DNA of 64,000 nt from Deltaproteobacteria bacterium. Lineage in GTDB: Bacteria > Myxococcota_A > UBA9160 > SZUA-336. The translations under genes and the position numbers were made by a program. The notes beneath the pieces are model-generated. The model did not search any database. It had not been told where the DNA came from and worked only from the letters and a program-made list of their open reading frames with translations. The stretch's first letter is position 1, and each line of letters opens with the position of its first letter. The stretch spans positions 25,572 through 89,571 of the forward strand of contig JAFDDB010000002.1 of the NCBI GenBank assembly GCA_019311115.1, read 5' to 3'. Shown here piece after piece: positions 1,854 to 62,367 of the stretch.

Positions 1854-3578
1854 CTACCGGCTCCCGGCGGCCGCAGACGGCCCCGGGGGCTCCGGAAGCG
1901 CTCCGGGGCGCTTCCGAAGCAGTAGCACGCCGGCCACGAAATGCTCGGGAGGGCTCCCGGCCGGCGGCGGGTGGCGCTCGAAGAAGGCCGTGTCCTCCTC
2001 GTAGCGGATCTGCAGGAACCGGTGCAGGGCCGGTGCGTAGCCCGGCAGCCAGGGCGTCCCGGGCCAGCCCAGCATCCCGCGGAATATCATCCGCGGCGGC
2101 TCCCTGCGCAGCTGCTTGACCACCGCCCGGCCCGTTCCCGGGCCGGTCTGGCCCGGGTAGAGCTGCGCGTAGGGCCAGCTGTTGTAGCGGTCCGCCAGGA
2201 AGTAGACGTGCGCCTCGTGGCCGTACACGAAGAAGGGGGCGCCGGGCGGGACCCGGCGCTGGATCTCGAGCACGACGGGCTCGAGCCAGGCCGTCTGCGG
2301 CTCGATCCAGAGATCCGCCCGCTCGAGCTGCAGGTGGTAGGTCGCGCGAGCGTGGAGGGCTCCCGTGAGTCCCGCGCAGACGCCCAGCAGCACGGCGACC
2401 CCGACGGCTTCGAGGCGGGCGGCGCGCCGGCCGGGCGTCCACGAGGCGAAGATCAGCAGCCACACGACGGGGTACACGCTGATCACGTGCGCCCAGTCCG
2501 CCCGCGGAAACGCCGACAGCACGAATCCGAAGGCCAGCTGGGCCAGCAGGAACAGGCGGCCGGTCTCCACGGAGACCGGCCCCCCTCCCCGCCAGGACCG
2601 GAGCCACAGCCACAGCGGCCAGACGAAGACGAGCGGCAGGGACGTGTAGAGCCCGCGCGCGAGCGCCTCGAGCGCCGCCCAGTACACGCCGTACAGGTCC
2701 TCGAACGGAGCGGCTCCCGCCATCAGCAGGTGCCACGGAACCAGCGGCAGGTAGATGCCGCCGACGTTGTCGGCGCGCGTCGCGCCGAAGTCCCACCACG
2801 CCAGCATGTAGCCGGCCGGAATGCCGCTGGTCGGCAGGTAGCCCGTGAACGGGCGCACGAAGCCGCTGTACAGCATCGCCGGCAGCACGCCACGCGCTCC
2901 GAAGTAGCCGAAGAGCGGCACCACGCCGGCGGCCAGTCCGGCTGCGAGCGCGCCCACGCGGCGCAGCCTCTCGCGGCCGGGAACGGGGGCGGTGCGCAGG
3001 AAGACGTGCGGCAACGCCAACTGCAAGAGCAGCGCGGCGGCCAGGTAGATGCCCACGCTCTGCTTCGCCGCGAACGAGATCGCGAGGAAGAGACCCGCCA
3101 GGAACAGGCGCCGCCTCCTCCGGGGCCCGTCGACCAGCACCAGCGGAAGCGCCAGGCAGCCGAAGCAGAAGCTCAGGTCCCAGTACGAGTAGGTGGTGAA
3201 GACGGGGAAGCCGAGCAGCTTGAAGGCGAGCAGCGACGTCCCGAACAGCGCCGCGCGCGCGCGTCCCAGCAGCGGCACGGCCGCCAGGTAGAGGGCCAGG
3301 ACCGTGGCGCAGAAGACCGCGCCCGCCAGCGCGCGGCCGACGCCGACGCTCTCTCCGAAGACCGCCATGGCGAGGGCCACGGCGTAGTTGGCAGCCGGAT
3401 AGGGGTAGGCGTCGATGTCCCGGTAGAACACGCCGCCGTGCAGGACCTTGACGGCGTTGGTGAGCACCGCGCCCTCGTCGGGATTCGGCAGGTGGTGGAC
3501 TCCCCACCAGGCGGAGAGCAGCGCCGCCGCGACTCCCAGCAGCACGCCGAAGCGGGCCGGCTGCAGCCAGATCTGCAT
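1854..3578 (-). CDS. GT-C family membrane glycosyltransferase (GT39/GT83 ArnT/PMT-like)
   Basis: Polytopic membrane protein. It has a PDEG motif in the first periplasmic loop and YPYPAANYAVALAMAVFGES, typical of ArnT/PMT-type polyprenyl-phosphate-sugar transferases. The likely start is the ATG at 3578 (MQIWL), which overlaps the upstream stop as TGATG. Confidence 0.6.
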   Translation of the reverse strand: MQIWLQPARFGVLLGVAAALLSAWWGVHHLPNPDEGAVLTNAVKVLHGGVFYRDIDAYPYPAANYAVALAMAVFGESVGVGRALAGAVFCATVLALYLAAVPLLGRARAALFGTSLLAFKLLGFPVFTTYSYWDLSFCFGCLALPLVLVDGPRRRRRLFLAGLFLAISFAAKQSVGIYLAAALLLQLALPHVFLRTAPVPGRERLRRVGALAAGLAAGVVPLFGYFGARGVLPAMLYSGFVRPFTGYLPTSGIPAGYMLAWWDFGATRADNVGGIYLPLVPWHLLMAGAAPFEDLYGVYWAALEALARGLYTSLPLVFVWPLWLWLRSWRGGGPVSVETGRLFLLAQLAFGFVLSAFPRADWAHVISVYPVVWLLIFASWTPGRRAARLEAVGVAVLLGVCAGLTGALHARATYHLQLERADLWIEPQTAWLEPVVLEIQRRVPPGAPFFVYGHEAHVYFLADRYNSWPYAQLYPGQTGPGTGRAVVKQLRREPPRMIFRGMLGWPGTPWLPGYAPALHRFLQIRYEEDTAFFERHPPPAGSPPEHFVAGVLLLRKRPGALPEPPGPSAAAGSR

Positions 3579-27756: not shown

Positions 27757-29106
27757 ATGCGTAGCGCAGCCCTGATGCTCAGCTTCGTCCTGCCGCTCGC
27801 GGCTTTCGGCCCCGGCCTGGCCGCGGCCCAGGAGTCGGTCGCCGAGGACGCCCGCCCCGGCATCCCGTTCAAGGAAGGGGATGTCATCAGCTTCGAAACG
27901 ATCGACAAGCTGAAGGACTACCTGCCCCCGGAGTTCTGGGAGCACCGCGAGTACTTCTTCTACGAGGGCATGGAGATCAAGATCGGCCCGACCGGCCGTG
28001 ACTACAGCCCCGCCGCCGCGTACCAGAAGTCGACTGCGGACCACGCGGCCAAGACGAGCATCGGACCCGATGGCGCGCTGATCGACTACCGCGCGGGGCA
28101 GCCCTTCCCGTCCGACGAGATCGACTGCAAGGGTGATCCCCAGGCCGGCAACAAGATCGCGTGGAACTTCGTCAAGCGCTGGAACGGCGACGGCTCGGAC
28201 GCGACCTGGTCGTACACCTACTGGGACCGCGGCGACCAGCTCCCGCTCTACTACAAGGGCACGGCCAAGGCGGTCGCCATGGCCTACCGCAGCGAGCCGA
28301 AGTACGACGAGACGAACGGCGACATCTTCAAGAACGAGCGGCGCATGAACGTGTTCGGCATCGAGGTGACCGAGCCTTTCGACGCACGCGGCATCCTGCT
28401 GCTGACCTACGCCTACAAGTCCGCCGACATGGGAGAGAAGGACGCCAAGAACGACGACACGTGGGTCTACGTGCCCGACCTTCGCCGCACGCGGCGCATC
28501 TCTCGCGCGCAGCGCACCGACTCCGTCCAGGGCACCGACTTCACCATGGACGACCTGAACAGCTTCGCCGGCAAGCCCCCGCAGTACACCTGGACGTGCC
28601 TCGGCGAGACGACGATCATCGCGCCGATGAACACGCAGTCGATGGCCTACCCGTACAACGAGGACTACAACTTCGGTCCCTACGGGTTCTCGTTCGCCAA
28701 CGACCTGTGGGAGGTGCGCGACGTCTGGATCATCCGGTTCGATCCGCGAAACGACGACCACCCGTACGCGTACAAGGACATCTACATCGACAAGCAGGCG
28801 ACCGAGCCGATGTACAGCTTCGCGTACGACCGCCGGAAGGAGCTCTGGAAGATCATCTGGCACAACAAGCGCTGGAGCGAGGACTGGCACACGGGCGACG
28901 AGCGCGCCAAGGGCGGCAACTGGTATCCCGGCTGGGAGGGCGTCGACAAGCCGAACGACCTGCGCATCGTCAGCGACATCATCGTGAACGTGCAGACCGG
29001 TACCGGGAATCGGATCGAGTACTGGGACTCGCACGGAAGGCCATTCACCAGCAAGGGACGAATCCGGCGGTACATCGACATCGGGCGCCTGAACAAGGGA
29101 CGCTAG
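27757..29106 (+). CDS. DUF1329-family secreted protein
   Basis: Signal peptide MRSAALMLSFVLPLAAFGPGLAAAQ. Trp/Tyr-rich body about 450 aa long, typical of DUF1329 (LolA-like) proteins. Local GC is lower than in neighbouring genes. Confidence 0.55.
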   Translation: MRSAALMLSFVLPLAAFGPGLAAAQESVAEDARPGIPFKEGDVISFETIDKLKDYLPPEFWEHREYFFYEGMEIKIGPTGRDYSPAAAYQKSTADHAAKTSIGPDGALIDYRAGQPFPSDEIDCKGDPQAGNKIAWNFVKRWNGDGSDATWSYTYWDRGDQLPLYYKGTAKAVAMAYRSEPKYDETNGDIFKNERRMNVFGIEVTEPFDARGILLLTYAYKSADMGEKDAKNDDTWVYVPDLRRTRRISRAQRTDSVQGTDFTMDDLNSFAGKPPQYTWTCLGETTIIAPMNTQSMAYPYNEDYNFGPYGFSFANDLWEVRDVWIIRFDPRNDDHPYAYKDIYIDKQATEPMYSFAYDRRKELWKIIWHNKRWSEDWHTGDERAKGGNWYPGWEGVDKPNDLRIVSDIIVNVQTGTGNRIEYWDSHGRPFTSKGRIRRYIDIGRLNKGR

Positions 29107-29131: not shown

Positions 29132-29170
29132 GGGGCCCGGGTTCCTCTCGGGACCCGGGCCCCTTCTTTG
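29132..29170 (+). terminator. intrinsic terminator after DUF1329 gene
   Basis: The stem GGGGCCCGGG (29132-29141) pairs with CCCGGGCCCC (29154-29163) and is followed by TTCTTTG. Confidence 0.55.
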
Positions 29171-36349: not shown

Positions 36350-37240
36350 TCACCCCGCTCCCCCGCGCGGGTGCCGGCTCTCGACCAGGGACTGCAGGCG
36401 CTCGCGGCTCACGTGGGTGTAGATCTCGGTCGTACCGATGTCGGCGTGGCCGAGCATCTCCTGCACCACGCGCAGATCCGCCCCGCCCTCGAGCAGGTGC
36501 GTCGCGAACGAGTGGCGCAGCACGTGCGGCGTGATGTGGCCGCGCACTCCCGCCAGCCGCGCGTAGTGACGGATGCGGTACCAGATCGCCTGGCGAGTTA
36601 CCGAGCGCCCGCGATTCGACACGAACACCTCTTCGACCGCGTCACCCTGCACCCAGCGCGGCCGCACCTCTTCGAGGTAGCGCGAGATCCAGTGCACCGC
36701 CGGCTCGCCGAGCGGCGCGATCCTCTGGCGCCGGCCCTTGCCGAAGACGCGGCAGACGAGCGCCGAAAGCTGCAGATCGGAGAGCCGCAGCGTGGTCAAC
36801 TCGGAGACGCGCAGACCGGCGGCGTAGAGCGTCTCGAGCACGGCACGGTCGCGGATGCCGATCGGCTCCTCGCCCGGCGCTTCGATCAGGACGCGCACCT
36901 CGTTCACGCTCAGCACGCGTGGCACCTTCCGCCCGCGCCGCGGCCGGTGCATGTCCGCCATCGGGTCCTCGACCATGGCCCCCTCGCGCCGGAGAAAAGC
37001 GAGCCACTGCGCGATGGCCGACAGCGCCCGGGCCCGCGTCGAGGCGCCGCGGCCGGTGGCTTCGAGCCGCTCCACGTGCTGGCGCAACAGCCGGGCGTCC
37101 ACGGCCGAGACCGCGATGCCCCCGCTCGTCTCGAGCAGCGCCGCGAGGTCGCGCGCGTAGGCCTGGACGGTCGACGCCGCCAGGCCCCGCTCGACGGCCA
37201 GGTGTGAGAGGAACGCGTCGATCGACGCTTCGATCCTCAA
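36350..37240 (-). CDS. xerD: tyrosine recombinase XerC/XerD
   Basis: Integrase core-binding plus catalytic domain with R..HxxR..Y (HVLRHSFATHLLEGGADLRVVQEMLGHADIGTTEIYTHV). TTG start overlaps the glnD stop as TTGA; the rest of listed ORF 36350-39241 is antisense or the glnD frame. Confidence 0.8.
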   Translation of the reverse strand: MRIEASIDAFLSHLAVERGLAASTVQAYARDLAALLETSGGIAVSAVDARLLRQHVERLEATGRGASTRARALSAIAQWLAFLRREGAMVEDPMADMHRPRRGRKVPRVLSVNEVRVLIEAPGEEPIGIRDRAVLETLYAAGLRVSELTTLRLSDLQLSALVCRVFGKGRRQRIAPLGEPAVHWISRYLEEVRPRWVQGDAVEEVFVSNRGRSVTRQAIWYRIRHYARLAGVRGHITPHVLRHSFATHLLEGGADLRVVQEMLGHADIGTTEIYTHVSRERLQSLVESRHPRGGAG

Positions 37241-39933
37241 CCGCCGTCCTGCCGGATGGCGCGGAGCACCGCCTCTTCGACCCTCTTCGAGCGCTCCGGG
37301 TCGGTGAGCTTGTGGCCCCCGTCGGTGACGTAGAAGGCGTCCGTCGCGCGGTTCGCGCGCGTAGACGCGCGCGACAGGACCACGTCCAGGTCGCACTCCG
37401 CCAACGCGCGCGTGATGTCGAAGAGCAGCGCCGGCCGGTCGTTCGTCGCCACCTCGATCACCGTGTACAGGTCCGACTCGCCGTTCAGCACGCGCACGCT
37501 GGGTGGCGCCGAGCGCATGGCGACCGGCGCCGAGCCTGACCTGCGGTCGATCTGTCCCAGCTCGCGGCGTCCTTCGAAGATGTCCACCAGCCGCTCCTCG
37601 ACGCGGTGGCACTCGAACTCGGCCTCTTCCTCGCCACCGGCGATCGGCGCCATCACGTAGATCTCGACCGCCAGCCGGTCCCGCGTCGTGTAGACCTGCG
37701 CCGCCAGGATGTCGTGGCCCAGCACCGTCAGCACACCGGTCACGGTGGAGAAGAGCGCGGGCCGGTCGCGCGTCATGACCACGACGCCCCAGAAGGGCTG
37801 CGCGTCGCTCGAGTCGACGAACGGGACGACGGCCGCCTGCTTGCCCGAGTCCGAGAAGTCGAGCGCAGCTCTCACGTGCACGGCGATCTCGGACGGCAAG
37901 TGGTTCAACAGGTAGCGGCGCGGCATCTGCTCGAGAAAGGCCGCCGCGCGCTGGCCGTCGATGCCCTGCTCCCCGAGCAAGGCGAGAGCCTCGCGCTCGG
38001 CCCGCTCGAAGTTCCGGAGCGCCCGGTCCAGGAAGAACTTCTCGGCGGCGGCGTCCTCGGCGCCCGCCTCCAGCCACTCCGCCCCGTTGCGGTAGAACGC
38101 CTCGAGCAGGCCGGCCTTCCAGGGCGTCCAGGCCTCGGGGGACACGCTGCGGATGTCGGCGACCGTCAGCAGGTACAGGCTGCGCAGCATCTCGCGGGAG
38201 CCGGTCAGGCTGACCAGGCGCATGATCTGGCGCGGGTCGTGAACGTCGCGCTGCTCGGCCATCGCGCTCATCGTCAGGTGGTGGCGCACCAGGAACTCGA
38301 TCACTCGCACGTCCTCGCCGGCCAGGCCGAGGCGCTCGCAGACGGCGGGCACCATGCGTGCACCCTTCTCGGAGTGGCCCCCGCCGCGTCCCTTGCCCAC
38401 GTCGTGCAGCAGACAGCTCAGGAAGAGGTGCAGCGGTGACCGCACTTCGCGTACCAGCTCCGTCGCCAGTGTCAGCTCGTCGCCGAAGCGCCCCTTCTTC
38501 AGCCGCCGAAGCTGTTCGACGAGGAAGAGCGAGTGCACGTCGACGGTATACGTGTGGTACATGTCGTGCTGCCACAGCCCGACGACGCTGCCGAACTCGG
38601 GGATGTAGGCGCCCAGGATCCCGATCTCCGACATCAGCTTCAGCGCGCGGTACACGCGCGTCGGCGAGCACAGGATCCGCTTGAACAGGTCCGCCGCCTC
38701 GGGGTCGCACCGGAACGCATCGTCGATCAGGTGCAGATGCTGGCGCAGCAATCGCTGCGCGCGGCCCGAGATCGCGATGTCGTGGTGCTGCGCGACCGCG
38801 AAGGCGGCCAGCAGCCTTACGGGGCGACCTTCGAGGATTTCGGGGCTCGGGATCTCGAGCCGCCCGTCCACGACGACGAAGCCCTCCTCGACCGGGTAGG
38901 CGGGAATCGAGCGTCCGCGACGCAGCAGCGTCTGCGCGTGGCTCACGACCTGCCGCGAGATGTAGTCGATCGTGCGCGCGTGGCCGTAGTAGTCGCGCAT
39001 GAGCTTCTCGACGGCGAGCGTGTTCCCCTCGTCCTCGTAGCCCAGCCGCTCGACCAGGCGCCTCTGCGCCTCGTAGTGAAGCTGGTCGTCCTTGCGTCCG
39101 CTCCGGTGCAGTTCGTTGCGCGCGCGCCACATGAAGTCGAGCGCCCGCAGCAGCGACTTGCCTTCGTCCGCGTCGATGAAGCCGTGCAGCGGCAGGTGCT
39201 CGGGCTTCCGCACGTTCCACTGCGCGGCTCGCGCGATCCACAGCGCGGTGTGGTAGTCGCGCAGCCCTCCCACGCTCTCGCGCAGGTTCGGCTGCAACAG
39301 GTAGAGCGACTCGTGGTATCTCTCGTGCCTCGCGCGCTGCTCCTCGATCTTGTCCTGGACGAAATCGCGCCGGACCTTGCGCATCTGGCCGCGAACCGCC
39401 TCCTCGTACTCGGCGTACAGCTCCAGGTCGCCGATCAGGAAGCGTGAATCCAAGTACGAGGTCATCGTCGGCACGTCACGCGCGCCCAGCCGCAGGCACT
39501 CGCGGATGGTGCGCGTGGCTGCGCCGACCACGAGGCGCGCGTCCCACAGGCGGTGCGTCAGGGACTCGGCGATCGTCTCGATGTACGGGTTGGTCTTTCC
39601 CCGGTGGATGAAGAGCAGGTCGATGTCCGATCCCAGCGCCAACTCACGCCGCCCGTAGCCGCCGACGGCGGCGATCGCGATGCGGAAGTTCAGCCGCGGG
39701 AAGTGCTCGAAGTAGCGGTCCTCGGCCATCCGGAACAGCTGCCGGATCAGCCGGTCGATCATGGAGGAGTTCCGCTCGTTCACGTACCGGGCTGGCGCGC
39801 CGCTGTCGTGCAACTCGAGCACCCAGGCGCGCGCGTCGTCGAGGTAGGCGCGCACGTGCGGGTTCAGGTGCAAGGAGGACGGCCCCGCCGGGGCGGAGAG
39901 ATCCTTGAAGTAGTCCTCGCAGATCGGCTGCAT
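37237..39933 (-). CDS. glnD: [protein-PII] uridylyltransferase/uridylyl-removing enzyme
   Basis: NTase motif GGYGRRELALGSDIDLLF, HD domain HDVGKG, and two C-terminal ACT domains. Confidence 0.85.
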   Translation of the reverse strand: MQPICEDYFKDLSAPAGPSSLHLNPHVRAYLDDARAWVLELHDSGAPARYVNERNSSMIDRLIRQLFRMAEDRYFEHFPRLNFRIAIAAVGGYGRRELALGSDIDLLFIHRGKTNPYIETIAESLTHRLWDARLVVGAATRTIRECLRLGARDVPTMTSYLDSRFLIGDLELYAEYEEAVRGQMRKVRRDFVQDKIEEQRARHERYHESLYLLQPNLRESVGGLRDYHTALWIARAAQWNVRKPEHLPLHGFIDADEGKSLLRALDFMWRARNELHRSGRKDDQLHYEAQRRLVERLGYEDEGNTLAVEKLMRDYYGHARTIDYISRQVVSHAQTLLRRGRSIPAYPVEEGFVVVDGRLEIPSPEILEGRPVRLLAAFAVAQHHDIAISGRAQRLLRQHLHLIDDAFRCDPEAADLFKRILCSPTRVYRALKLMSEIGILGAYIPEFGSVVGLWQHDMYHTYTVDVHSLFLVEQLRRLKKGRFGDELTLATELVREVRSPLHLFLSCLLHDVGKGRGGGHSEKGARMVPAVCERLGLAGEDVRVIEFLVRHHLTMSAMAEQRDVHDPRQIMRLVSLTGSREMLRSLYLLTVADIRSVSPEAWTPWKAGLLEAFYRNGAEWLEAGAEDAAAEKFFLDRALRNFERAEREALALLGEQGIDGQRAAAFLEQMPRRYLLNHLPSEIAVHVRAALDFSDSGKQAAVVPFVDSSDAQPFWGVVVMTRDRPALFSTVTGVLTVLGHDILAAQVYTTRDRLAVEIYVMAPIAGGEEEAEFECHRVEERLVDIFEGRRELGQIDRRSGSAPVAMRSAPPSVRVLNGESDLYTVIEVATNDRPALLFDITRALAECDLDVVLSRASTRANRATDAFYVTDGGHKLTDPERSKRVEEAVLRAIRQDGG

Positions 39934-39942
39934 CGCGAGAGT

Positions 39943-41100
39943 TTAGCGCCCTGCGACGATGCTGCGGGCGTGGCTGTCGCGATAGCGGAGGATGCCCGCC
40001 GCGATCCCGTCGGAGACGGTGCGCGCGAAGGCGCGGCCGCGCAAGCGCTTGGACTCGGAGCGGTTGGTGACGAAGCCGACCTCCACCAGGATGGCCGGCA
40101 TGTCGGCCTGGAACAGCACCACGAACGGGCCACGCTTCACGCCCAGGTCCCGGGTCTTGCCGTACTTTCCGCGCAGCGATGCCATCAGCCCCGTGTGCAC
40201 CTTCTCGGCCAGGGGCGCCGCGTAACGCTCGCTGTAGGACAAGCGCAGCGACGCCAGGATGCGCTGGAGGTCGTTCAGCTCCGCCACCGTCGTCCCGTTC
40301 TCGCGAGCTGCCACGCGGGCCGTGTTCTTGTCGTAGCGCGTGTCGAGCAGGTACGTCTCCACGCCGTTCGACTTCCGGTTGCGCGAGGCATTCGCGTGGA
40401 TCGAGACGAAGAGATCTCCCTTCCACTGGTTCGCGAGCAGCGTGCGCTTGTCGAGCGGGATGAAGACGTCCTTGTCGCGCGTCAGGTGGACCTCGAGTCC
40501 TTCGGCGCGCAGGCGCTTGGCGAGCTCGCGCGCCACGCGCAGGACCACGTCCTTCTCCCGAAGCCCTCGCGAACCGATGGCGCCCGGGTCCTTGCCGCCG
40601 TGTCCCGGATCGATGACGACGCTGCGCACCGGGCGGCGGTCGAAGGACGCCGGCCCGCGCGCGACCCGAGAGTGTCTCGGGGGCGGCGCGCCGTCGTGGA
40701 AGATGTCGGTGACGATCCGGAACGGGTGCGGCGAGCGGACCTCGAAGGTCTCGCGCACCCGCCCCGGCCGGTCGAGCTCGACGACGACGCGCGCCTTGCG
40801 CAAGGTGTTCTGGCCGCCGCGCACCTTGCGCACCACCTCGGTGCTCGACAGGGCGTGGGGCTCGCCCGCCTCGGGCTCGATCCACGTCTCCTCGATGTCT
40901 ACGTAGTACCGCGGCGGATCCGCGACGAAGCCCGTGTGCCACTCGGCGGAGCGGGACAGGTCGATCACGACGCGCGTGTGCGTGTCGTGCGAGAAGACGC
41001 GCACTCCGGTCACGTCGCCGAGACCCGGGGGACGTTCTCCCGGGGCGAGCAGCGTGAAGGCCACGACGGCGAGCAGCAGCCGGCGCGAGCTGCGGGTCAT
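39943..41100 (-). CDS. N-acetylmuramoyl-L-alanine amidase (AMIN + Amidase_3, AmiC-like)
   Basis: Signal peptide MTRSSRRLLLAVVAFTLLA. AMIN domain, then the Amidase_3 motif VIDPGHGGKDPGA. The ATG overlaps the mutS stop as ATGA. Confidence 0.8.
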   Translation of the reverse strand: MTRSSRRLLLAVVAFTLLAPGERPPGLGDVTGVRVFSHDTHTRVVIDLSRSAEWHTGFVADPPRYYVDIEETWIEPEAGEPHALSSTEVVRKVRGGQNTLRKARVVVELDRPGRVRETFEVRSPHPFRIVTDIFHDGAPPPRHSRVARGPASFDRRPVRSVVIDPGHGGKDPGAIGSRGLREKDVVLRVARELAKRLRAEGLEVHLTRDKDVFIPLDKRTLLANQWKGDLFVSIHANASRNRKSNGVETYLLDTRYDKNTARVAARENGTTVAELNDLQRILASLRLSYSERYAAPLAEKVHTGLMASLRGKYGKTRDLGVKRGPFVVLFQADMPAILVEVGFVTNRSESKRLRGRAFARTVSDGIAAGILRYRDSHARSIVAGR

Positions 41101-43721
41101 GCGTCCTCTCCCGGGTCGTCCCCGCCCGAGGGAGCGTCTCCGCGTGCGAGGCGGCACAGGTGGTCGAGCGCGGCGATGGCCTCGATCGGCGTCATCTGAT
41201 CTGGTACGAGACGGCGAAGCGCCTCGCGTAGTGGGTCGCGAGCCGGCTCGAACAGCGCGAGCTGCTGCGGCGCATCGCCGCTGCTCTCGCGTGCCAGGCG
41301 GGGCTCTCCCCGCTCGTCGAACTCTCCCCCCTCCAGGTTCGCGAGGACCGCCCGTGCGCGGCGGATCACCTCGGGGGGGAGACCCGCGTGCCGTGCGACC
41401 TCGATTCCGTAGCTACGACTGGCGGCTCCGGGCTCCATGCGGCGCAGGAACAGGATCTCGCTCGCGCCTTCCGCCCCACCGGACCCGTCCCCCCCTACGG
41501 AGGTGGACGGAGCACACGTGAAGTGGAAGTTCCTCACCCCTGCGCGGGTCTGGGCCAGATCCGCCAGCTCGTGGTAGTGGGTGGCGAAGAACGTCCGGGG
41601 TCGCAACCCCGGGGTGTCGTGGAGATACTCCACGACGGCCCAGGCGATCGAAAGTCCATCGAAAGTCGAGGTGCCCCGCCCGATCTCGTCGAGCAGCACC
41701 AGGCTGCGGTGCGTCGCCTCGGCCAGGATCACGGCCGTCTCCCGCATCTCGACCATGAAGGTGCTCTCGCCGGTCACGAGCGAGTCCGACGCGCCGACCC
41801 GCGTGAAGATGCGGTCCACGACCCCGACCCGCGCCTGCCGGGCGGGAACCCACGAGCCCATCTGCGCCAGCAGGGCGATCAGCGCGACCTGCCGCAGCAG
41901 GGTCGACTTTCCGGCCATGTTCGGGCCGGTCAGGATCACGAAGCCGGCGTCGTCCCCGTCGAGGTGGACGTCGTTCGGAACGAAGCCCTCCTCGACGTAG
42001 CGCTCCACGACCGGATGGCGGCCCGCGTCGATGTCGAGCGACAGCGACGCGTCGATCTCGGGGCGCGCGAAGTCCTGGGTCCGCGCCACCTCGGCCAGCG
42101 ACTGGAGCGTGTCCAGTTCGGCGATCTCCTCGGCCGTGACGCGCACGCTCTCGCTCGCGTCCGCGACGCTACGGCGCAACTCGCCGAGAACTCGGGCCTC
42201 GACGGCAGCCGCGCTCTCGCGTCCGCGAAGCACGACGCCCTCCCAGCGCTGAAGCTCCTCGGTGGTGAAGCGCTCCGCGTTCGCCGTCGTCTGCTTGCGC
42301 ACGTACTCGTCGGGCACCCGCGCGAGGTGCGGCCGGGTGACCTCGATCGAGTGGCCGAAGACGCGGTTGTAACGCAGCCGCAGCGTGGGGATGCCGAGCC
42401 TCTCGCGCTCGCGCGCCTCGAGCGAGGCGAGGAACGCGTTGCCCTCCTCACCGTCGGCGCGCACCCGGTCGAGCTCGGCATCGACGCCGTCGCGCACGTA
42501 GCCCGTGTGCGGCTCGCCGCGCGGGACGGGAGGTGGGTCGTCGACCAGCGCCCCTTCGAGCGCCGAGCGCAGCTCGTCCAGCGGGTCGGCGAGGGGCGCG
42601 ACCTCGTGCACGGCGACGACTCCCGAGAGCGAGGCGCGCAGTCCGGCGAAGTCGCGCGGGCCCGAGGCCGGCAGACACACGCGCGTCAGGATTCGCTCCA
42701 GGTCGCCGACGGAGCGAAGCGCCTCGGCCAGTGCGCGGCGCCGGCTGTCGGGCTCGATCCACTCCTGGAGGCGGTCCTGGCGAGCCGCGATCTCCTCGAC
42801 GTCGACCAACGGCTCGCCGATCCAGCGCACCAGGCGCCGCCGGCCCATCGGCGTCCGCGTGCGGTCGAGAAGCTCGAGCAGCGTGCCCCTCGTGCCGCCG
42901 TCCTGCAGGTTGGCGACCAGCTCCAGGTGCCGGCGCGTCGAGCGGTCGAGCACCATGCGGTCCAGCGCTACGTAGCGGCGCAGGCGCCGAAGCTGCTCGA
43001 GAGCCTGGGGCTGCAAGGTGGCGACCGCGACCCAGAGTGCGGCCGCCGCGCGCGAGGCGGGGTCGCGCTGCGCCGGCTCCAGCCCCTGGGGCAGCCGGCC
43101 GACCCGGCGCTCGGCGGCGGCCGGGTCGAAGTCGGCATCGGGCGCCTGCCGGCGTGGAAGCGCATCGGCCAGGCCCTTCTCCGCGTCGCGCAGCACCAGC
43201 TCGCGGGGCGAGACCCGGTCGAGCTCGGCCTCGAGCACCGCGCGCTCCGCCGTCTCGGTCGCCGCGAACTCGCCGGTCGAGATGTCGAGGTACGCCAGAC
43301 CGAAGCCCGACTCGTCCGAGAGCACCGCGGCGATGTAGTTGGATGCCGACCCCGGAAGCCGGTCGCCGTTCGCCACCAGCCCGGGGGATACGACCTCGAC
43401 GATCTCGCGCCGCACCAGCCCCTTGGCGAGCTTGGGGTCCTCGACCTGTTCGGCGATCGCCACCGCGCGTCCCGCTTCGAGCAGGCGCCGGATGTAGCCC
43501 TCGGCCGCGTGGTACGGCAGCCCGCACATGGGGACCGGGTTCGGCACGCCCTTGTCGCGCGTCGTCAGGACCAGGTCGAGCAGCGGCGCCGCCGTCTCCG
43601 CGTCCTCGAGAAACAGCTCGTAGAAGTCACCCATGCGGAAGAGCAGCAGCGCTTCGGGCACCTGGGCCTTCAGCCGCAGGTACTGCTGCATCATCGGCGT
43701 GTCCACGCCCTTGGACGGCAT
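41097..43721 (-). CDS. mutS: DNA mismatch repair protein MutS
   Basis: N-terminal TPMMQQYLRLKAQ and Walker A GPNMAGKST. Full-length domains I-V. Confidence 0.9.
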   Translation of the reverse strand: MPSKGVDTPMMQQYLRLKAQVPEALLLFRMGDFYELFLEDAETAAPLLDLVLTTRDKGVPNPVPMCGLPYHAAEGYIRRLLEAGRAVAIAEQVEDPKLAKGLVRREIVEVVSPGLVANGDRLPGSASNYIAAVLSDESGFGLAYLDISTGEFAATETAERAVLEAELDRVSPRELVLRDAEKGLADALPRRQAPDADFDPAAAERRVGRLPQGLEPAQRDPASRAAAALWVAVATLQPQALEQLRRLRRYVALDRMVLDRSTRRHLELVANLQDGGTRGTLLELLDRTRTPMGRRRLVRWIGEPLVDVEEIAARQDRLQEWIEPDSRRRALAEALRSVGDLERILTRVCLPASGPRDFAGLRASLSGVVAVHEVAPLADPLDELRSALEGALVDDPPPVPRGEPHTGYVRDGVDAELDRVRADGEEGNAFLASLEARERERLGIPTLRLRYNRVFGHSIEVTRPHLARVPDEYVRKQTTANAERFTTEELQRWEGVVLRGRESAAAVEARVLGELRRSVADASESVRVTAEEIAELDTLQSLAEVARTQDFARPEIDASLSLDIDAGRHPVVERYVEEGFVPNDVHLDGDDAGFVILTGPNMAGKSTLLRQVALIALLAQMGSWVPARQARVGVVDRIFTRVGASDSLVTGESTFMVEMRETAVILAEATHRSLVLLDEIGRGTSTFDGLSIAWAVVEYLHDTPGLRPRTFFATHYHELADLAQTRAGVRNFHFTCAPSTSVGGDGSGGAEGASEILFLRRMEPGAASRSYGIEVARHAGLPPEVIRRARAVLANLEGGEFDERGEPRLARESSGDAPQQLALFEPARDPLREALRRLVPDQMTPIEAIAALDHLCRLARGDAPSGGDDPGEDA

Positions 43722-43841
43722 CGCCACCCCCCGTCGTCGCGTCCCCGCCGAGTCTAGCGGATCCACCTGCGGGCCCCGGGCGCCGGCCCGCGGCGGCCGG
43801 CGTCGTTGACGACCCCCGGGACGGGTGCCACACTGCCGCAG

Positions 43842-43913
43842 ATGATTCCTCGCGACTTCGCCAGCCCCTATTTCTGGTACGGCTTTACGGCCGGGCGGAG
43901 GGGCTGCGTCTAG
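43842..43913 (+). CDS. putative attenuator leader peptide (23 aa, 6 aromatic codons) for the DAHP synthase gene
   Basis: ATG ATT CCT CGC GAC TTC GCC AGC CCC TAT TTC TGG TAC GGC TTT ACG ... TAG translates to MIPRDFASPYFWYGFTAGRRGCV. A candidate promoter sits upstream (TTGACG at 43806-43811, 17 nt spacer, CACACT). Confidence 0.5.
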   Translation: MIPRDFASPYFWYGFTAGRRGCV

Positions 43914-43942
43914 CGACGACAGGATTCAGAGAGACCCCGACG

Positions 43943-43972
43943 CCCCGAGCCAGACCGCTCGGGGCTTTTTTT
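43943..43972 (+). terminator. intrinsic terminator/attenuator hairpin immediately upstream of the DAHP synthase RBS
   Basis: CCCCGAGC-cagacc-GCTCGGGG followed by CTTTTTTT. It lies 30 nt after the leader ORF stop and 40 nt before the ATG at 44014. Confidence 0.65.
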
Positions 43973-44013
43973 GTCCCTACCTCCGTTCCAGGAGGATCCC
44001 AGGAGAGACCGAA

Positions 44014-45120
44014 ATGAGCTCGCCCATCCCTCTCGAAGCGCCCGGCCGGGCTGCGGCCGCGTCCGCCCTGCCCGCCCCGCCCGGAGGACGGGCCGAAGTC
44101 CTGCCGTCGCCGCTCGAGCTGCAGGCCGCGCTACCCGCGGGCGAGGCGGTTTCGGCGCGCGTGGCGGAGACGCGCCAGGCGATCCGGGACCTGCTCCACG
44201 GGCGCGACCCCAAGCGCCTGCTGGCGGTCGTGGGTCCCTGTTCCATCCACGACCCCAGGGCCGCTCTCGAGTACGCACGCCTGCTCGAGAAGACGGCCCG
44301 CGCCACGCGCGACCAGCTCGTGATCGTGATGCGCACGTACTTCGAGAAGCCGCGCACGAGCGTCGGCTGGAAGGGCTGGATCTACGACCCGCACCTCGAC
44401 GGGTCGGGAGACGTGGCGGCCGGACTGCGCAGCGCCCGCTCGCTGCTGCTCGACGTCAACCAGCTGGGACTGCCGTGCGCCGGCGAGATCCTCGACCCGA
44501 TCTCCTGCCGCTACCTCTCCGACCTGATGAGCTGGGGAGCGATCGGCGCGCGCACGGCCGAGAGCCAGACGCACCGCGAGCTGGCGAGCGGACTGCCCAT
44601 GCCGATCGGCGTGAAGAACCCGACCCACGGCGACCTCGACGTGGCCGTCAACGCCATGCAGGCGGTGGCCGCGCCGCACCCGGTGCTGGGCCTCTCGGAC
44701 TCGGGCGCCGCCGCGGTGTTGCGAACGCCGGGGAACCCCGACGGCAGCCTGGTGTTGCGCGGCTCGGTGCAGCGCCCGAACTTCCACCCGCTCGACGTCG
44801 CGGCGGCGCTGCGCGCGCTGCGCCGGAGTCGAGGAGCAGATCTCGAGCGCCCGCTCCTGGTCGACTGCTCGCACGACAACTCGCGCCAGGACCACCGGCG
44901 GCAAGGCGAGGTCGCGCGCTCCGTGTTCCGGCAGATCCGCGGCGGCCAGCGTGCCATCATGGGCTTCCTCCTCGAAGGGCACCTTCGTCCCGGACGCCAG
45001 CCGCTCGGTGACGGCCGCGCCCTCGAGTACGGGCTGTCGATCACGGACGCCTGCATCGGCTGGCCCGAGACCGAGGCGCTGCTCTTCGAAGCGGCAGAGG
45101 CCGTGGAGCGATCCAGGTGA
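44014..45120 (+). CDS. 3-deoxy-7-phosphoheptulonate (DAHP) synthase, class I alpha (AroG/F/H type)
   Basis: [30 protein letters not shown] and [10 protein letters not shown] match class-I DAHP synthase. Confidence 0.9.
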
Positions 45121-45148: not shown

Positions 45149-45634
45149 TTGAGCGAGCGACCGTTCCGCGTACTGGGAATCCAGCAGATCGCCGTCGGCG
45201 CAGCCGACAAGGCCGGCCTCCGCCGGCTCTGGATCGACCTGCTGGGACTCGAGATCACCGGCAACTTCCGCAGCGAAGCCGAGAACGTCGACGAGGACAT
45301 CGCCGCGATCGGCTCGGGTCCGCTGCGCGTCGAGGTCGACCTGATGGAGCCCGTCGATCCCGACGGGCGCCCGCGCGTGAGCGACCCGGCGCTGAACCAC
45401 GTCGGCCTCTGGATCGACGACCTGCCCGCCGCGGTCGAGTGGCTCGGTCAGCAGGGCGTGCGCTTCACGCCCGGCGGTGTCCGCAAAGGCGCCTCGGGGT
45501 TCGACGTCTGCTTCATCCACCCCAAGGGCGGAGGGGACACCCCGATCGGCGGCGAAGGCGTCCTGATCGAACTCGTCCAGGCCCCCCCGGAAGTCATCCA
45601 AGCCTTCCAACGCCTCGCCCAACAAGACGCCTGA
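45149..45634 (+). CDS. VOC (glyoxalase/bleomycin-resistance) family protein
   Basis: The [29 protein letters not shown]-terminal half has a βαβββ VOC layout. The start is a tentative TTG at 45149; the listed ORF 44951-45634 overlaps the aro gene. Confidence 0.5.
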
Positions 45635-58566: not shown

Positions 58567-59397
58567 TTAGCGTTCTAGCTCCTTCAGAGCCTTCTGGCCA
58601 GACCGCAGCGCCTCGAGCAACGCTTCACGGTCTCCCCGGACCAGGGCTTCGTGCAGAACTCCGAGGTCTTTCTCGAATCGAGCAAGCTCTTCGGCCACCG
58701 CGGACCGGTTCATGAGCAGAATCTCACACCACAGCGCAGGGTTGGCGCGCGCGATGCGGATGAAATCACGCAGGCCCCCGCCCGCCAGCCGGAGCTCCTC
58801 TGCTGCCGGCAGTCCGCGGGCGAATGCGTAGGCGATGAGATGAGGCGCGTGGGACAGCGCCGCGCTGATCGCGTCGTGTTCCGCCGGCGTCTTTCGAACC
58901 GTAAATGTGCCGAAACACTGCCAGAATTCGTCCACCCGGTCCACCACGGCCGCCGGTTCGTGCCCCTCCAGGGCGAGAATGCAGGCCGCACCCTCGAACA
59001 GGTCGGACCGGGCATGAGCGAATCCGGTGGCGTCTCCGCCGGCCATGGGGTGCGCGCCGACGCAGCGCTCCGGGCGATCCAGCCAGCGGCGCGCGGCGAC
59101 GGCCACTGGGCGCTTCACGCTGGCGACGTCCGTGAGAATGGTCTCCTCGCCCAGGTGAGGGGCGATTCCCTCGAGCACGGGGTCGAGCTGGTCGAGAGGC
59201 ATGGCGAGCACGAGCAGGTCGGCCCAGGCGGCGGCCTCTTCGAGGCCCACGAGCGGGATCGGACCGGCCTCCCGCAGGCCCGGGTCCACGCCCCTCACGG
59301 CCGCCGCGACGTCCCGCTCGATGGCACCCAGCGCGACCGACCCCCCGACCAGGCCGAGACCGACGACCGCGAGCCGCTCGATGCGGGGAGCCGTCAC
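58567..59397 (-). CDS. tyrA: prephenate dehydrogenase
   Basis: NAD-binding motif VVGLGLVGGS and catalytic GAHPMAG, matching the TyrA family. Confidence 0.8.
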   Translation of the reverse strand: MTAPRIERLAVVGLGLVGGSVALGAIERDVAAAVRGVDPGLREAGPIPLVGLEEAAAWADLLVLAMPLDQLDPVLEGIAPHLGEETILTDVASVKRPVAVAARRWLDRPERCVGAHPMAGGDATGFAHARSDLFEGAACILALEGHEPAAVVDRVDEFWQCFGTFTVRKTPAEHDAISAALSHAPHLIAYAFARGLPAAEELRLAGGGLRDFIRIARANPALWCEILLMNRSAVAEELARFEKDLGVLHEALVRGDREALLEALRSGQKALKELER

Positions 59398-60494
59398 CGG
59401 CCGAGCTCCGCGCGCAGGGCCTCGATGAAGCGGTCGTTCTCCTCGGGGAGCCCCACCGTCACCCGAAGGTGCGACGACAGGCCGAACGCGCCAAGCGCGC
59501 GCGTGATCACACCGCGCCGCAGCAGGCGCTGGTACAGGCCGGCCGCGTCGTCCCCGACCTCGACCAGCACGTAGTTCGCGTCACTCCGCGCCCAGGCCAG
59601 CCCCAGCTCGTCGAACGCGCGCTCGAGCTTCTCCAGGCCCCGGTGCGTCAGCTCGCGCACGCGTGCCAGGTGGTCCGCGTCGCGCAGTGCGCCCAGCGCG
59701 GCGGCCTGCGCCATGGAGTTGACGTTGAACGGGTGACGCGCGCGCTCCAGGTAGCCGACCAGCTCGGGGTCGCCGATGGCGTAGCCGACGCGCAGGCCGG
59801 CCAGGCCGTAGACCTTGGAGAACGTGCGCAGGCTCAGCACCGTCGGGCGCCTGCGGATCGCCGCCAGCGTGTCGGGAAAGTCGTCGCGGCGCACGTAGTC
59901 CAGGTAGGCCTCGTCGTGCACCAGGATCACGCGCTCCGGCAGGCCGTCGACCAGCACGTCGAACTCGGCCTGGCCGATCGAAGTCCCGGTCGGGTTGTTC
60001 GGGTTGGCCAGGAAGACGACGCGCGTGCGGTCGGTGACGGCCGAGAGCACGCTCGCCACGTCGAAGCGGAAGTCGCTGTCGAGCGCGACCTCGACGGGCT
60101 TCGCGCCCATGCCGCGCGTCACGATCGGGTACATGGCGAAGCTCGGCCAGGGGAAGACCGCCTCGTCGCCCGGGCCGAGCACGCACTTGGCCAGGATCTC
60201 GAGCAGCTCGCTGGAGCCCGTGCCGAAGATCAGCGCCTCGGGAGCGACTCCGAGCTGCGACGCCAGCGCCTCGCGAAGGTAGTAGCTGGAGCCGTCGGGA
60301 TAGCGGTTCAGCCCCTCGGTCGCCTGGACCGCCGCTTCGAGCGCGCGGCGCGACGGGCCGAGCGGCGACTCGTTCGACGCCAGCTTGATCGAGCCCGAGA
60401 TGCCGAGCTCGCGCTCCAGTTCCTCGACGGGCTTGCCGGGCGGGTAGGCCTCGAGCTCGAGGATGTGCGGCTTCATCAGGTCCGCGATCTTCAC
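59394..60494 (-). CDS. hisC: histidinol-phosphate/aromatic aminotransferase
   Basis: LANPNNPTG and the PLP-lysine context FSKVYGLAGLRVGY. It sits between pheA and tyrA as in the proteobacterial pheA-hisC-tyrA arrangement. Confidence 0.85.
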   Translation of the reverse strand: MKIADLMKPHILELEAYPPGKPVEELERELGISGSIKLASNESPLGPSRRALEAAVQATEGLNRYPDGSSYYLREALASQLGVAPEALIFGTGSSELLEILAKCVLGPGDEAVFPWPSFAMYPIVTRGMGAKPVEVALDSDFRFDVASVLSAVTDRTRVVFLANPNNPTGTSIGQAEFDVLVDGLPERVILVHDEAYLDYVRRDDFPDTLAAIRRRPTVLSLRTFSKVYGLAGLRVGYAIGDPELVGYLERARHPFNVNSMAQAAALGALRDADHLARVRELTHRGLEKLERAFDELGLAWARSDANYVLVEVGDDAAGLYQRLLRRGVITRALGAFGLSSHLRVTVGLPEENDRFIEALRAELGR

Positions 60495-61594
60495 GACGCC
60501 TCCGCCCGGGGATAGCTGCCCAGGACCTTGACGAAGTCACACCTCGGCTCCAGCTGGGCGATCGCCGCGGCGACGGGCTCGTCGTCCACGTGGCCCTCGA
60601 AGTCGCAGAAGAACACGTACTCCCAGGCGCGGACGCGCGTCGGGCGCGACTCGATGCGAGTCAGGTTCACGTCGTGCTCCGCGAACGGCTCGAGCGCCTT
60701 GTAGAGCGCCCCCGACTGGTCGCGCTTGATCGAGAAGAGCAGCGACGTGATGTCGCGCGCGCTCCTCTTGGAGGGCACGCGGCTGATCACGAGGAAGCGG
60801 GTGGTGTTGTCGCTGTTGTCCTCGATTCCGCTGCGCACGGCGCGCAGGCCGTAGAGCCCGGCCGCGACCGGGCTCGCGATGGCCGCGATCGTCGCGTCGC
60901 GGCTCGCCATCTCGGCGGCCTCGGCCGTCGAGTGCGCCGAGTGCTGCGGCACCCCGGTCAGGTTCAGCTCGAGCCAGCGGCGGCACTGCGCCAGCGGCTG
61001 AGGGTGCGAGTAGACCGCGCGCACCTCGGCCAGGTCTCCGCTCAGCGAGAGCAGGTCGTGGTGGACGGCGACGTGGATCTCGGCGCTGATCGTCAGCGGC
61101 GACTCGACGAAGAGGTCGAGCGTGTGACTCACCACGCCCTCGTTCGAGTTCTCGACCGGCACGACGCCGAACTCGGCGCGCTCGGACTCGACCGCCTCGA
61201 AGATGTCGGCGAAGGTCGTCGCCGGCAGCAGGTCCGCCATCTGTCCGAACTGCTGGATGGCCGCCTGGTGCGAGTAGGTGCCGCGCGGCCCCAGGTACGA
61301 GACGCTCACGCCGCGCTGCAGCGAGATCGAGGCCGAGATGATCTCGCGAAAGACGTTGCGGATGGCCGACGTCGGAAAGGGGCCCGCGTTCGCGCCCTCG
61401 AGCCGCTCGAAGATCTCCAGCTCGCGGCTCGGAACGAAGGACGTACTGCCCTCGCCCGCCTTGAGGCGCCCGATCTCCGCATTGAGCCGCGCGCGGTCGT
61501 TGAGGAGGTCGAGGATCCGATCGTCGATCTCATCGATATTCCGCCGCGCGCCGTCCAAGGGGTCCCGGGATCTGGATCGTCGTGAATCACCCAT
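60491..61594 (-). CDS. pheA: bifunctional chorismate mutase/prephenate dehydratase
   Basis: Chorismate mutase domain IDEIDDRILDLLNDRARL, prephenate dehydratase motif YLGPRGTYSHQAA, and a C-terminal ACT domain. Confidence 0.85.
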   Translation of the reverse strand: MGDSRRSRSRDPLDGARRNIDEIDDRILDLLNDRARLNAEIGRLKAGEGSTSFVPSRELEIFERLEGANAGPFPTSAIRNVFREIISASISLQRGVSVSYLGPRGTYSHQAAIQQFGQMADLLPATTFADIFEAVESERAEFGVVPVENSNEGVVSHTLDLFVESPLTISAEIHVAVHHDLLSLSGDLAEVRAVYSHPQPLAQCRRWLELNLTGVPQHSAHSTAEAAEMASRDATIAAIASPVAAGLYGLRAVRSGIEDNSDNTTRFLVISRVPSKRSARDITSLLFSIKRDQSGALYKALEPFAEHDVNLTRIESRPTRVRAWEYVFFCDFEGHVDDEPVAAAIAQLEPRCDFVKVLGSYPRAEAS

Positions 61595-61719
61595 CGATCA
61601 CTTCCGTGGAGGGGCGCGATGATACCCCAGCGCCGGAGCGCCCGCCAAAGGAAAGCCCAGCGATCCCGGCGACTTCCGTGCCCACAGCAGCACGAGAGCG
61701 TGGCGTATACTCGCGCCCC

Positions 61720-62367
61720 ATGAGTGGCGTGCGGAGCGTGGTGATCGGCCTCACGGGCGGAATCGGGACGGGCAAGACGCGCGTATCGGACCTGCTGCGC
61801 GAACTCGGCGCCGCCATCGTCTGCTCGGACGAGATCGTCCGGCAGCTGCAGGCACCGGGCGGCGAGGTGCTCGAACGCATCCGCGAGACCTTCGGCGACG
61901 AGTACGTCCTGGCCTCGGGAGAGCTCGACCGCGCGCGGCTCGGCGAGCTGGTCTTCAACGACCCCGCCGAGCGCCAGCGGCTGAACGCCGTCGTCCACCC
62001 CGCCGTAGGCCGGGAGACTTCGAGGCAGCTCGAGGCCCACCGCAAGGCCGAGGTGCCCGTGATCGTGCTCGACATCCCGTTGCTCTTCGAGGTGCGCCGC
62101 CCCGGCACGGCGGCCGCACATCCGACGGACTTCGTCGTGACGGTCTACGCGCCGGCCGAAACTCAGCTCGAGCGCGTGCTCGCGCGCGACGACCTGGAGC
62201 CCGCCGAGGCGCGCGCGCGCATCGACTCGCAGATCCCGATCGAGGAGAAGCGCGAGCTGGCCGACGTGGTGATCGACAACTCGGGGGCCTGGGACGCGAC
62301 CGAGAAGCAGGTACGCGAGCTCTACGCGCTGTGGGTCAGCCGCGCGCGCTCCGCACCGCCTGGCTGA
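61720..62367 (+). CDS. coaE: dephospho-CoA kinase
   Basis: Starts at MSGVRSVVIGLTGGIGTGKT (P-loop), which is M47 of the listed ORF. Confidence 0.8.
   Translation: MSGVRSVVIGLTGGIGTGKTRVSDLLRELGAAIVCSDEIVRQLQAPGGEVLERIRETFGDEYVLASGELDRARLGELVFNDPAERQRLNAVVHPAVGRETSRQLEAHRKAEVPVIVLDIPLLFEVRRPGTAAAHPTDFVVTVYAPAETQLERVLARDDLEPAEARARIDSQIPIEEKRELADVVIDNSGAWDATEKQVRELYALWVSRARSAPPG

Follow-up and report, generated by a model that had tools for sequence, protein, structure and literature searches.

The committed entry step of the shikimate pathway is catalysed by DAHP (3-deoxy-D-arabinoheptulosonate 7-phosphate) synthase, and a class I gene for this enzyme, here called aroG, is found in the 64 kb stretch of contig JAFDDB010000002.1 (Deltaproteobacteria bacterium; GC content 71%) that we analysed as a whole and refer to as ‘the window’. 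Directly upstream of aroG lies a candidate leader-peptide attenuator: an open reading frame (ORF) rich in aromatic codons and an intrinsic terminator, preceded by a putative promoter and accompanied by RNA strands that can pair in alternative ways. The features of this locus are as follows.

43806–43811, + strand: putative −35 box TTGACG, proposed from its conservation and the 17-nt spacer to the −10 box
43826–43834, + strand: putative extended −10 box TGc-CACACT, proposed from its conservation; it ends 7 nt 5′ of the leader ATG
43842–43913, + strand: leader ORF of 23 codons, from the ATG at 43842 to the TAG stop at 43911–43913, encoding the peptide MIPRDFASPYFWYGFTAGRRGCV
43862–43869, + strand: region 1, the 5′ strand of an anti-antiterminator (CAGCCCCU), predicted to pair with region 2
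43869–43886, + strand: Tyr-Phe-Trp-Tyr-Gly-Phe codon cluster, the ribosome stall site proposed from sequence and masked folds
43893–43903, + strand: region 2, the antiterminator 5′ strand GGGCG-GA-GGGG, in the Gly-Arg-Arg-Gly codons (leader codons 18–21)
43904–43922, + strand: inner hairpin of the antiterminator, CUG-CGUC / UAGC / GACG-A-CAG, with the stop codon UAG (43911–43913) in its loop
43935–43945, + strand: region 3, the antiterminator 3′ strand CCCC-GA-CGCCC, whose last 4 nt are also the first four of the terminator 5′ arm
43942–43972, + strand: intrinsic terminator with a 9-bp stem (GCCCCGAGC / GCUCGGGGC), a 6-nt loop and a U7 tract
44001–44006, + strand: Shine-Dalgarno-like AGGAGA of aroG, read from the sequence
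44014–45120, + strand: class I (AroG/F/H-type) DAHP synthase of 368 aa (PF00793, DAHP_synth_1; E = 8e-73, 245 bits, residues 59–356)
45149–45634, + strand: Glyoxalase_4 / VOC-family protein (PF13669), with a putative TTG start

The 23-codon ORF is present as the first-pass annotation of this DNA had described it, with six aromatic codons, five of which sit in YFWYGF. With the 64 kb read in all six frames, no other six-codon stretch reaches five aromatic codons; 20 Markov-simulated windows contained none, and no second copy of the leader motif was found in the window. The intrinsic terminator that the same annotation had placed before aroG is likewise there: its arms (43942–43950 and GCTCGGGGC at 43957–43965) are followed by T7 at 43966–43972, the hairpin energy is −19.3 kcal/mol, and the structure begins 28–29 nt past the leader stop, with 41 nt between its end and the aroG ATG at 44014. 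Runs of at least six T occur only twice in the window, one of them being the terminator tail, and terminator-like sites number about four with both strands counted. As a whole, the 136-nt leader is more stably folded than shuffles (z = −3.2).

Folding returned antiterminator and terminator as mutually exclusive structures, which share 43942–43945 (GCCC). The pairing of region 1 with region 2 that had been proposed earlier (43862–43869 with AGGGGCUG at 43899–43906; 8 bp) is part of the minimum-energy fold, in which the 1:2 helix extends outward to approximately 43847–43925 with −36.1 kcal/mol. As for the proposed pairing of regions 2 and 3, an antiterminator does exist, but the register originally given for it, ggggctgcgtc with gacgcccc, is possible and yet not the best supported one: it fits five near-identical sequences, and 91.7% of all cells are paired, but four of its eight pairs break in the related locus L089, and we replaced it with the bipartite helix 43893–43903 / 43935–43945. 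When the leader was folded under a 29-nt ribosome mask, with the A site moved along the leader codons, the expected switch was seen: a mask at codons 10–13 frees the window antiterminator, and region 2 is hidden when the mask sits on the final aromatic codon or on the stop codon.

To assess conservation among close relatives we used a clade set consisting of the window and seven related loci with upstream DNA (L091, L092, L083, L085, L082, L089 and L099). The contigs come from DAHP synthase database clusters, of which six, and no more, are over 61% identical to the window enzyme, plus one contig reached via MutS relatives, which the databases label Myxococcota. The first-pass annotation had staked its reading on the mini-ORF and hairpin recurring in related intergenic regions, and they do: an in-frame aromatic-rich ORF followed by a terminator stands directly upstream of aroG in 7/7 related loci, the aroG genes being 62–75% identical where measured. 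The leader peptides of these relatives are listed here.

L091: MSPRPSTSSQRLFFAGWYGYFAFMAGRRGCV
L092: VNRSSNPFGWYAYFAFMAGRRGCV
L083: VNRFSNLFGWYGYFAAFTAFAAGRRGCV
L085: a population variant of the L083 peptide
L082: VIHVSNPFGWYAYFAFTAGRRGCV
L089: MSSLLQFPGAFFFYAWFTPGWRSFT
L099: VSRSGSSAFAFGYYRWFSAGARGICAID (L099/L100 were found through MutS-guided look-ups)

Length differences between the clade leaders amount to whole codons, several of the aromatic-codon differences are synonymous (TAC/TAT, TTC/TTT), and the C-terminal AGRRGCV is kept throughout the clade. The CCAGGAGA sequence before aroG is conserved in most members. L085 (25–111) and L083 (3465–3551) present a case of their own: their DAHP synthases are identical and their leaders differ by Leu to Val and Tyr to Cys (TAC to TGC), the second change sitting inside the aromatic cluster as natural population variation in a regulatory codon.

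The predicted pairings are conserved along with the frame. With early or middle aromatic codons masked, each of the eight clade leaders folds into an antiterminator that captures part of the terminator 5′ arm; seven share one and the same G-rich/C-rich bipartite helix, and L099 uses CGGGGC:GCCCCG and CGGG:CUCG. Inner hairpins equivalent to that of the window are found in L083 and L092 (CUGCG...CGCAG), L091 and L099. In a transcript that does not yet reach region 3, region 2 has predicted partners among the upstream nucleotides of the leader ORF in 8/8 members; these partners overlap the aromatic-codon cluster in 7/8 and lie just upstream of it in L091. The nucleotides that partner in the 1:2 pairing differ between members, and ribosome-free truncated folds often favour the antiterminator. 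The leader is absent from the mutS-side intergenic region of L098, L101 and L102, where aroG is not beside mutS, and the element therefore belongs to aroG. No leader was found in L094, which lies outside the clade (aroG 61% identical, lower GC).

To look further afield, we scanned a distant set made up of the best 80 GTDB matches to the enzyme among those listed (47–59% identical) for a mini-ORF with at least four aromatic residues in eight, followed by a terminator within 90 nt. This automatic scan was positive for 11 of 80 aroG upstream regions, as against two matches in 1.0 Mb of background taken from those loci. The positive loci are L010 (Synechococcus sp. H60.4), L027 (Binatia), L059 (Spirochaetaceae), L070 (Acidimicrobiia), the Myxococcota loci L052, L054, L057, L061 and L062, and the Pseudomonadales-like gammaproteobacterial loci L053 and L063; read by eye, L051, L041 and L066 carry the leader too. 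Altogether the aromatic-rich frame is preserved in approximately 20 loci, about 13 of them distant ones, despite nucleotide differences and whole-codon indels, with Phe, Tyr and Trp together in nearly every leader; beyond the aromatic cluster, the peptides of the distant loci show no conservation. The 80-locus scan found no aromatic leader with terminator in the approximately 45 Nitrospirota loci or the enterobacterial aroG loci sampled.

A first covariance model (R1), built from six clade sequences with the terminator as the only structure, gave full-length matches exactly upstream of aroG in L099, L062, L054, L051, L041 and L061 (E 2e-10 to 1e-3), and a second iteration (R2) added L027, L059, L010 and L052 (E 3e-5 to 2e-3, rough values). 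R2 did not detect L070, L057 or the three gammaproteobacterial loci; the model-negative loci, with their aromatic codons at the very C-terminus, may be independent inventions. Two further model matches, L022 6487–6566 (−) and L082 1385–1475 (−), we discarded as spurious: they lie inside coding sequences and have no terminator. A scan of metagenome contigs for the exact pattern GGAGGNGYTNCRYCTAG-N(20–50)-CCCCGAGC yielded just three matches, all due to chance and located within coding sequences, and added nothing to the family. Searched against Rfam 15 at the gathering threshold, the whole window gave no match at this locus, the leader families (Trp_leader, Phe_leader, His_leader, Leu_leader and Thr_leader), T-box and known riboswitches included; with E up to 10, 43780–44030 gave only weak matches to unrelated small RNA models, driven by the terminator. 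As judged by its sequence and by the model matches, the leader is a member of a conserved RNA family that spans several phyla and has no match in Rfam. We go further only with an even balance of confidence: there would be one ancient or horizontally mobile ‘aroG leader’ family, associated with class I-alpha DAHP synthase across at least four phyla (Myxococcota, Binatia, Spirochaetota and Cyanobacteria), with similar and perhaps independent versions in Gammaproteobacteria and Acidimicrobiia, a mixed Phe/Tyr/Trp peptide reading all three aminoacyl-tRNA pools, mostly leaderless transcripts, and no counterpart in Rfam or the literature searched.

Two groups of distant loci deserve separate description. 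The leaders of L053 (approximately 2767–2940), L063 (approximately 2740–2895) and L066 (approximately 2740–2890), upstream of aroG at 3001, look different: the peptides end in …GCWFGYWPR*, …GGYWFFTS* and …GFQFFGYWRVT*, respectively, with the aromatic cluster C-terminal, an ACCCCG… terminator follows, the −10 box lies 8–9 nt before the ATG, and both R1 and R2 miss them. From their sequences they may have arisen independently or represent a strongly diverged branch. In L041 (Myxococcota), approximately 1015–1140 matches the RNA model (E of about 1e-10 with R2), and the leader ORF, MRRASSENFTHITVSWLAPGRRGIVLIG, contains just a single Phe and a single Trp, with a hairpin that lacks a U tract (…GGGGCTTCGTGCTTCTGG); this may be a decaying or re-purposed attenuator.

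The promoter region is conserved as well. TTGAC(G/C), positioned 17–18 nt from the −10 box, is kept in the window, L083, L092, L089 and L099, the −35 box of L091 being TTGCGG, and TTGAC(G/C) is found in L027, L051, L054, L057, L062 and L063 too. TGnCA(G/C)ACT is kept in the five clade members with promoter DNA. The distance from the end of the −10 box to the start codon is 7–9 nt across the clade, 8–10 nt in L053, L057, L062, L063 and L066 (by scan) and 7–8 nt in L027, L051 and L059 (read by eye); L052, L010 and L041 have longer 5′ untranslated regions (5′ UTRs). No Shine-Dalgarno sequence is visible before the leader ORF in the window sequence. With the −10 box ending 7–10 nt ahead of the start codon, the leader is probably translated from a leaderless mRNA, or from one whose 5′ UTR is at most 3 nt. 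Leaderless mRNAs are thought to be rare in Gram-negative lineages.

The alternative structures by themselves are silent on what flips the switch, and an open 23-codon frame is not unusual in GC-rich DNA. The switch might then be real and set otherwise, by a small-molecule riboswitch, a T-box-like tRNA contact or a TRAP/PyrR-type protein, with the ORF incidental. We consider this very unlikely: the aromatic-codon enrichment is extreme for the window genome, the frame survives synonymous changes and whole-codon indels in some 20 loci, the stop codon occupies a fixed position inside the antiterminator and the start codon a fixed distance from the promoter, and Rfam, with its T-box and riboswitch models, returned nothing.

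Covariation supports the two competing structures. Our alignments A5 and A6 were produced with a covariance model given only the terminator as structure, so that no fit to the antiterminator is built into them. For the 10 antiterminator pairs, 95% of cells are paired in the 12 distinct sequences of A5, with five compensatory pairs; 0/500 shuffles reach the covariation score, and slid controls are at most 64% paired. In the 15 distinct sequences of A6 the same 10 pairs show 92.7% of cells paired, five compensatory pairs and 10 compensatory cells, again with 0/500 shuffles reaching the score and with slid controls at most 62% paired. The terminator has 97% of cells paired and two compensatory pairs in A5. 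The C/U of GCCC(C/U)GAG covaries with G/A in the antiterminator strand (CCGGGGC to CCAGGGC in L054, L062 and L010) and also with G/A in the terminator 3′ arm; this double covariation of one terminator position is the signature of two alternative partners. An alignment-free comparison of 16 diverse loci gave a native mean of −20.2 kcal/mol for the duplex that joins the 3′ end of the ORF to the terminator 5′ arm, as against −16.8 ± 0.63 kcal/mol for permuted locus pairs (p of about 5e-5). The attenuator reading put forward in the first-pass annotation, with its 1:2/2:3/3:4 logic, is supported by comparative conservation, compensatory changes and ribosome-mask folding, the 1:2 helix being a predicted one.

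The same data bear on a second rival explanation, namely that the functional product is the terminated transcript of approximately 130 nt or the peptide itself (in the first case a trans-acting small RNA such as Sinorhizobium rnTrpL, in the second a hydrophobic micropeptide), with the control of aroG secondary. Attenuator-derived small RNAs and leader peptides with trans functions do exist, according to two reports (PMC6614838; bioRxiv 10.1101/606483), and the AGRRGCV terminus conserved in the clade speaks for this reading. That conservation is, however, explained by the RNA pairing the terminus encodes: the C-terminus changes along with its partner strand in L089, L054/L062 and L010. Moreover, the peptide is not conserved beyond the aromatic cluster, and the element is always directly upstream of aroG and gone where aroG is absent. 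We hold a primarily trans-acting element to be very unlikely; a trans-acting function would be an addition compatible with attenuation. Still less credible, to the point that we give it next to no weight, is a chance ORF beside a constitutive or decaying terminator with no regulatory role. An aromatic enrichment of this degree, the covariation and the cross-phylum conservation all oppose it, and an unregulated strong terminator between the promoter and the only downstream gene would silence aroG.

We have high confidence, drawn from sequence comparison, in a ribosome-mediated leader-peptide transcription attenuator acting on a class I DAHP synthase operon of aroG and a glyoxalase-family gene; the latter follows aroG in every clade member and is probably its co-transcribed second gene. 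In the proposed mechanism, transcription would start at, or no more than approximately 3 nt from, the leader ATG at 43842, from the putative promoter TTGACG-17-TGnCACACT, and the 23-codon leader would be translated as a leaderless mRNA. With Phe-, Tyr- and Trp-tRNAs charged, the ribosome would reach the UAG and cover the G-rich GGGCGGAGGGG (43893–43903), leaving 43935–43945 free, and the terminator at 43942–43972 would form and stop transcription 41 nt before aroG. Were any aromatic aminoacyl-tRNA scarce, the ribosome would stall in YFWY (43869–43880) and the 1:2 helix would melt; the freed region 2 would then pair with region 3, taking GCCC from the terminator stem, and the polymerase would read into aroG. 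If there were no translation, region 1 would sequester region 2, and the terminator would form.

Several observations weigh against attenuation by this route. Leaderless translation is deduced from promoter geometry alone, and two clade members would need to initiate leaderless translation at GTG, an inefficient process in E. coli. Most of the close sequences are nearly identical in regions 2–4, and the covariation therefore rests on few lineages (L089, L099, L054/L062, L010, L027 and L061). In the window itself, position 43892 is C, as compared to G in L091, L092, L083, L082, L089 and L099, and an antiterminator pair of the relatives is consequently a C–C mismatch (43892 vs 43946; pair 9–89 in A5), the window antiterminator being shifted in register by one nucleotide (GGGCG:CGCCC) and slightly weaker. 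The thermodynamic minimum of the full-length RNA always contains the terminator, so that antitermination must be kinetic, as in classical systems: stalled-ribosome folds of the full-length leaders of L083 and L085 still form the terminator, and the antiterminator appears in every clade member only with transcripts that end before the terminator 3′ arm. Finally, the source organism is an uncultured metagenome-assembled genome (MAG).

The remaining genes of the window that touch on this subject are mutS, which is divergent from aroG, and further aromatic-pathway genes at some distance.

41097–43721 or 43766, − strand: mutS, the upper bound depending on the start chosen
58567–59397, − strand: tyrA
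59394–60494, − strand: aminotransferase
60491–61594, − strand: pheA
61582–62367, + strand: coaE (dephospho-CoA kinase), which separates trpBA from pheA-hisC-tyrA-rpsA
62336 to approximately 63120, − strand: trpA, with trpB running off the window end

The gap of 247 nt originally given between mutS and aroG holds only if mutS starts at the GTG at 43766; with the start at 43721 that is indicated by a 100%-identical database MutS (P0121, 874 aa), a protein of a MAG named ‘Deltaproteobacteria bacterium’, the gap becomes 292 nt. The pheA-hisC-tyrA and trpBA genes noted earlier are indeed in the window, all on the minus strand. Since the opposite-strand coaE lies between them, trpBA and pheA-hisC-tyrA-rpsA do not form one operon, and no leader-like element was seen before pheA in the window.

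The order of mutS, an AMIN-domain N-acetylmuramoyl-L-alanine amidase and a GlnD-like uridylyltransferase is kept in all MutS relatives examined (37237–43766 (−) in the window; 2501–7550 in L098–L102). In the MutS relatives L098 (1247–2501), L101 (1960–2501) and L102 (1729–2501), which are 66–70% identical, the mutS-divergent position has no aroG: the glyoxalase gene abuts mutS in L101 (61-nt gap), a 151-aa protein without a Pfam match occupies the aroG position in L098, and LemA/TPM genes are found in L102. Judging from this gene order, aroG and its leader seem to be a cassette gained or lost as a unit. Elsewhere in the window, 29132–29163 (+) forms a GC-rich hairpin of 14 bp (GGGGCCCGGGTTCC…GGGACCCGGGCCCC), whose T tail is weak, just past an ORF ending at 29106; it is among the very few terminator-like sites in the window, and is probably the terminator of that ORF.

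If the attenuator reading is correct, one translational sensor of Phe, Tyr and Trp codons would be a common solution in several poorly studied phyla, and the leaders would provide candidate examples of leaderless translation outside Actinobacteria and Deinococcus. The defined RNA family (seed alignment and structure) could serve Rfam and annotation, and the natural mixed-aromatic leader variants are a resource for biosensor design. The understanding of attenuation itself is unchanged.

Textbook transcriptional control of DAHP synthase is that of E. coli by TyrR and TrpR and that of a few Gram-positives (T-box; aroR in Corynebacterium). The E. coli aroF, aroG and aroH genes encode the same enzyme family (the window DAHP synthase is 50–51% identical to enterobacterial AroG-type enzymes), and their regulation serves the same purpose, feedback control of shikimate entry; it is exerted by the promoter repressors TyrR and TrpR, unlike the proposed attenuator of the window. 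Neither attenuation at aroF-tyrA nor termination at aroH is known to have become established in E. coli. Both are older suggestions (Camakaris 1980 and Zurawski 1981, respectively, as cited in PMC2659441). For Vibrio, the Merino database (PMC1173090) lists attenuators predicted in front of aroA(I-alpha)-tyrA.

In its architecture the window element resembles trpL-trpEDCBA and pheL-pheA: a region 1 that is predicted to overlap the regulatory codons, an antiterminator in 2:3, a terminator in 3:4 that ends in a U tract, and a stop codon from which a terminating ribosome would block region 2. Unlike the window element, trpL and pheL serve terminal-pathway operons, sense one amino acid each and have a leader ORF with a Shine-Dalgarno sequence; conversely, the window element has a bipartite long-range antiterminator helix that encloses a stop-codon hairpin, and it matches neither Trp_leader nor Phe_leader of Rfam, be it at the gathering threshold or with hits up to E = 10 admitted.

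The first-pass annotation had held that attenuation is not an established mechanism for DAHP synthase genes. This view is outdated, since C. glutamicum already offers a case of a DAHP synthase gene under leader-peptide attenuation: as reported in later articles, stalling on the AroR leader peptide (Phe-Tyr-Phe) upstream of the aroF DAHP synthase operon raises transcription (Neshat et al. 2014, J Biotechnol 190:55, via PMC11802643, PMC4046766 and PMC3890552), and aroR responded to Phe limitation and not to Tyr, according to PMC11802643. For genera other than Corynebacterium, the literature searched, the coverage of which is incomplete, yielded no account of an aromatic leader peptide in front of a DAHP synthase gene. 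The amino-acid attenuator leader ORFs of Actinobacteria are often leaderless, as in S. lividans (PMC8079986) and C. glutamicum ilvL (PMC11857589), and the probably leaderless leader of the window resembles them in this respect. What is new here is a sequence family across several phyla that is not in Rfam, with a mixed Phe/Tyr/Trp sensor and probably leaderless. The window element and aroR-aroF share a short mixed-aromatic leader peptide before a DAHP synthase operon; they differ in that aroR-aroF belongs to Actinobacteria and the window to a Myxococcota-like MAG, and in that the window leader has all three aromatics, Trp included, and is denser (5/6 codons). The family of the window element is detectable by covariance model in Myxococcota, Binatia, Spirochaetaceae and Synechococcus; the likeness of the element to aroR is a functional analogy drawn from the literature.

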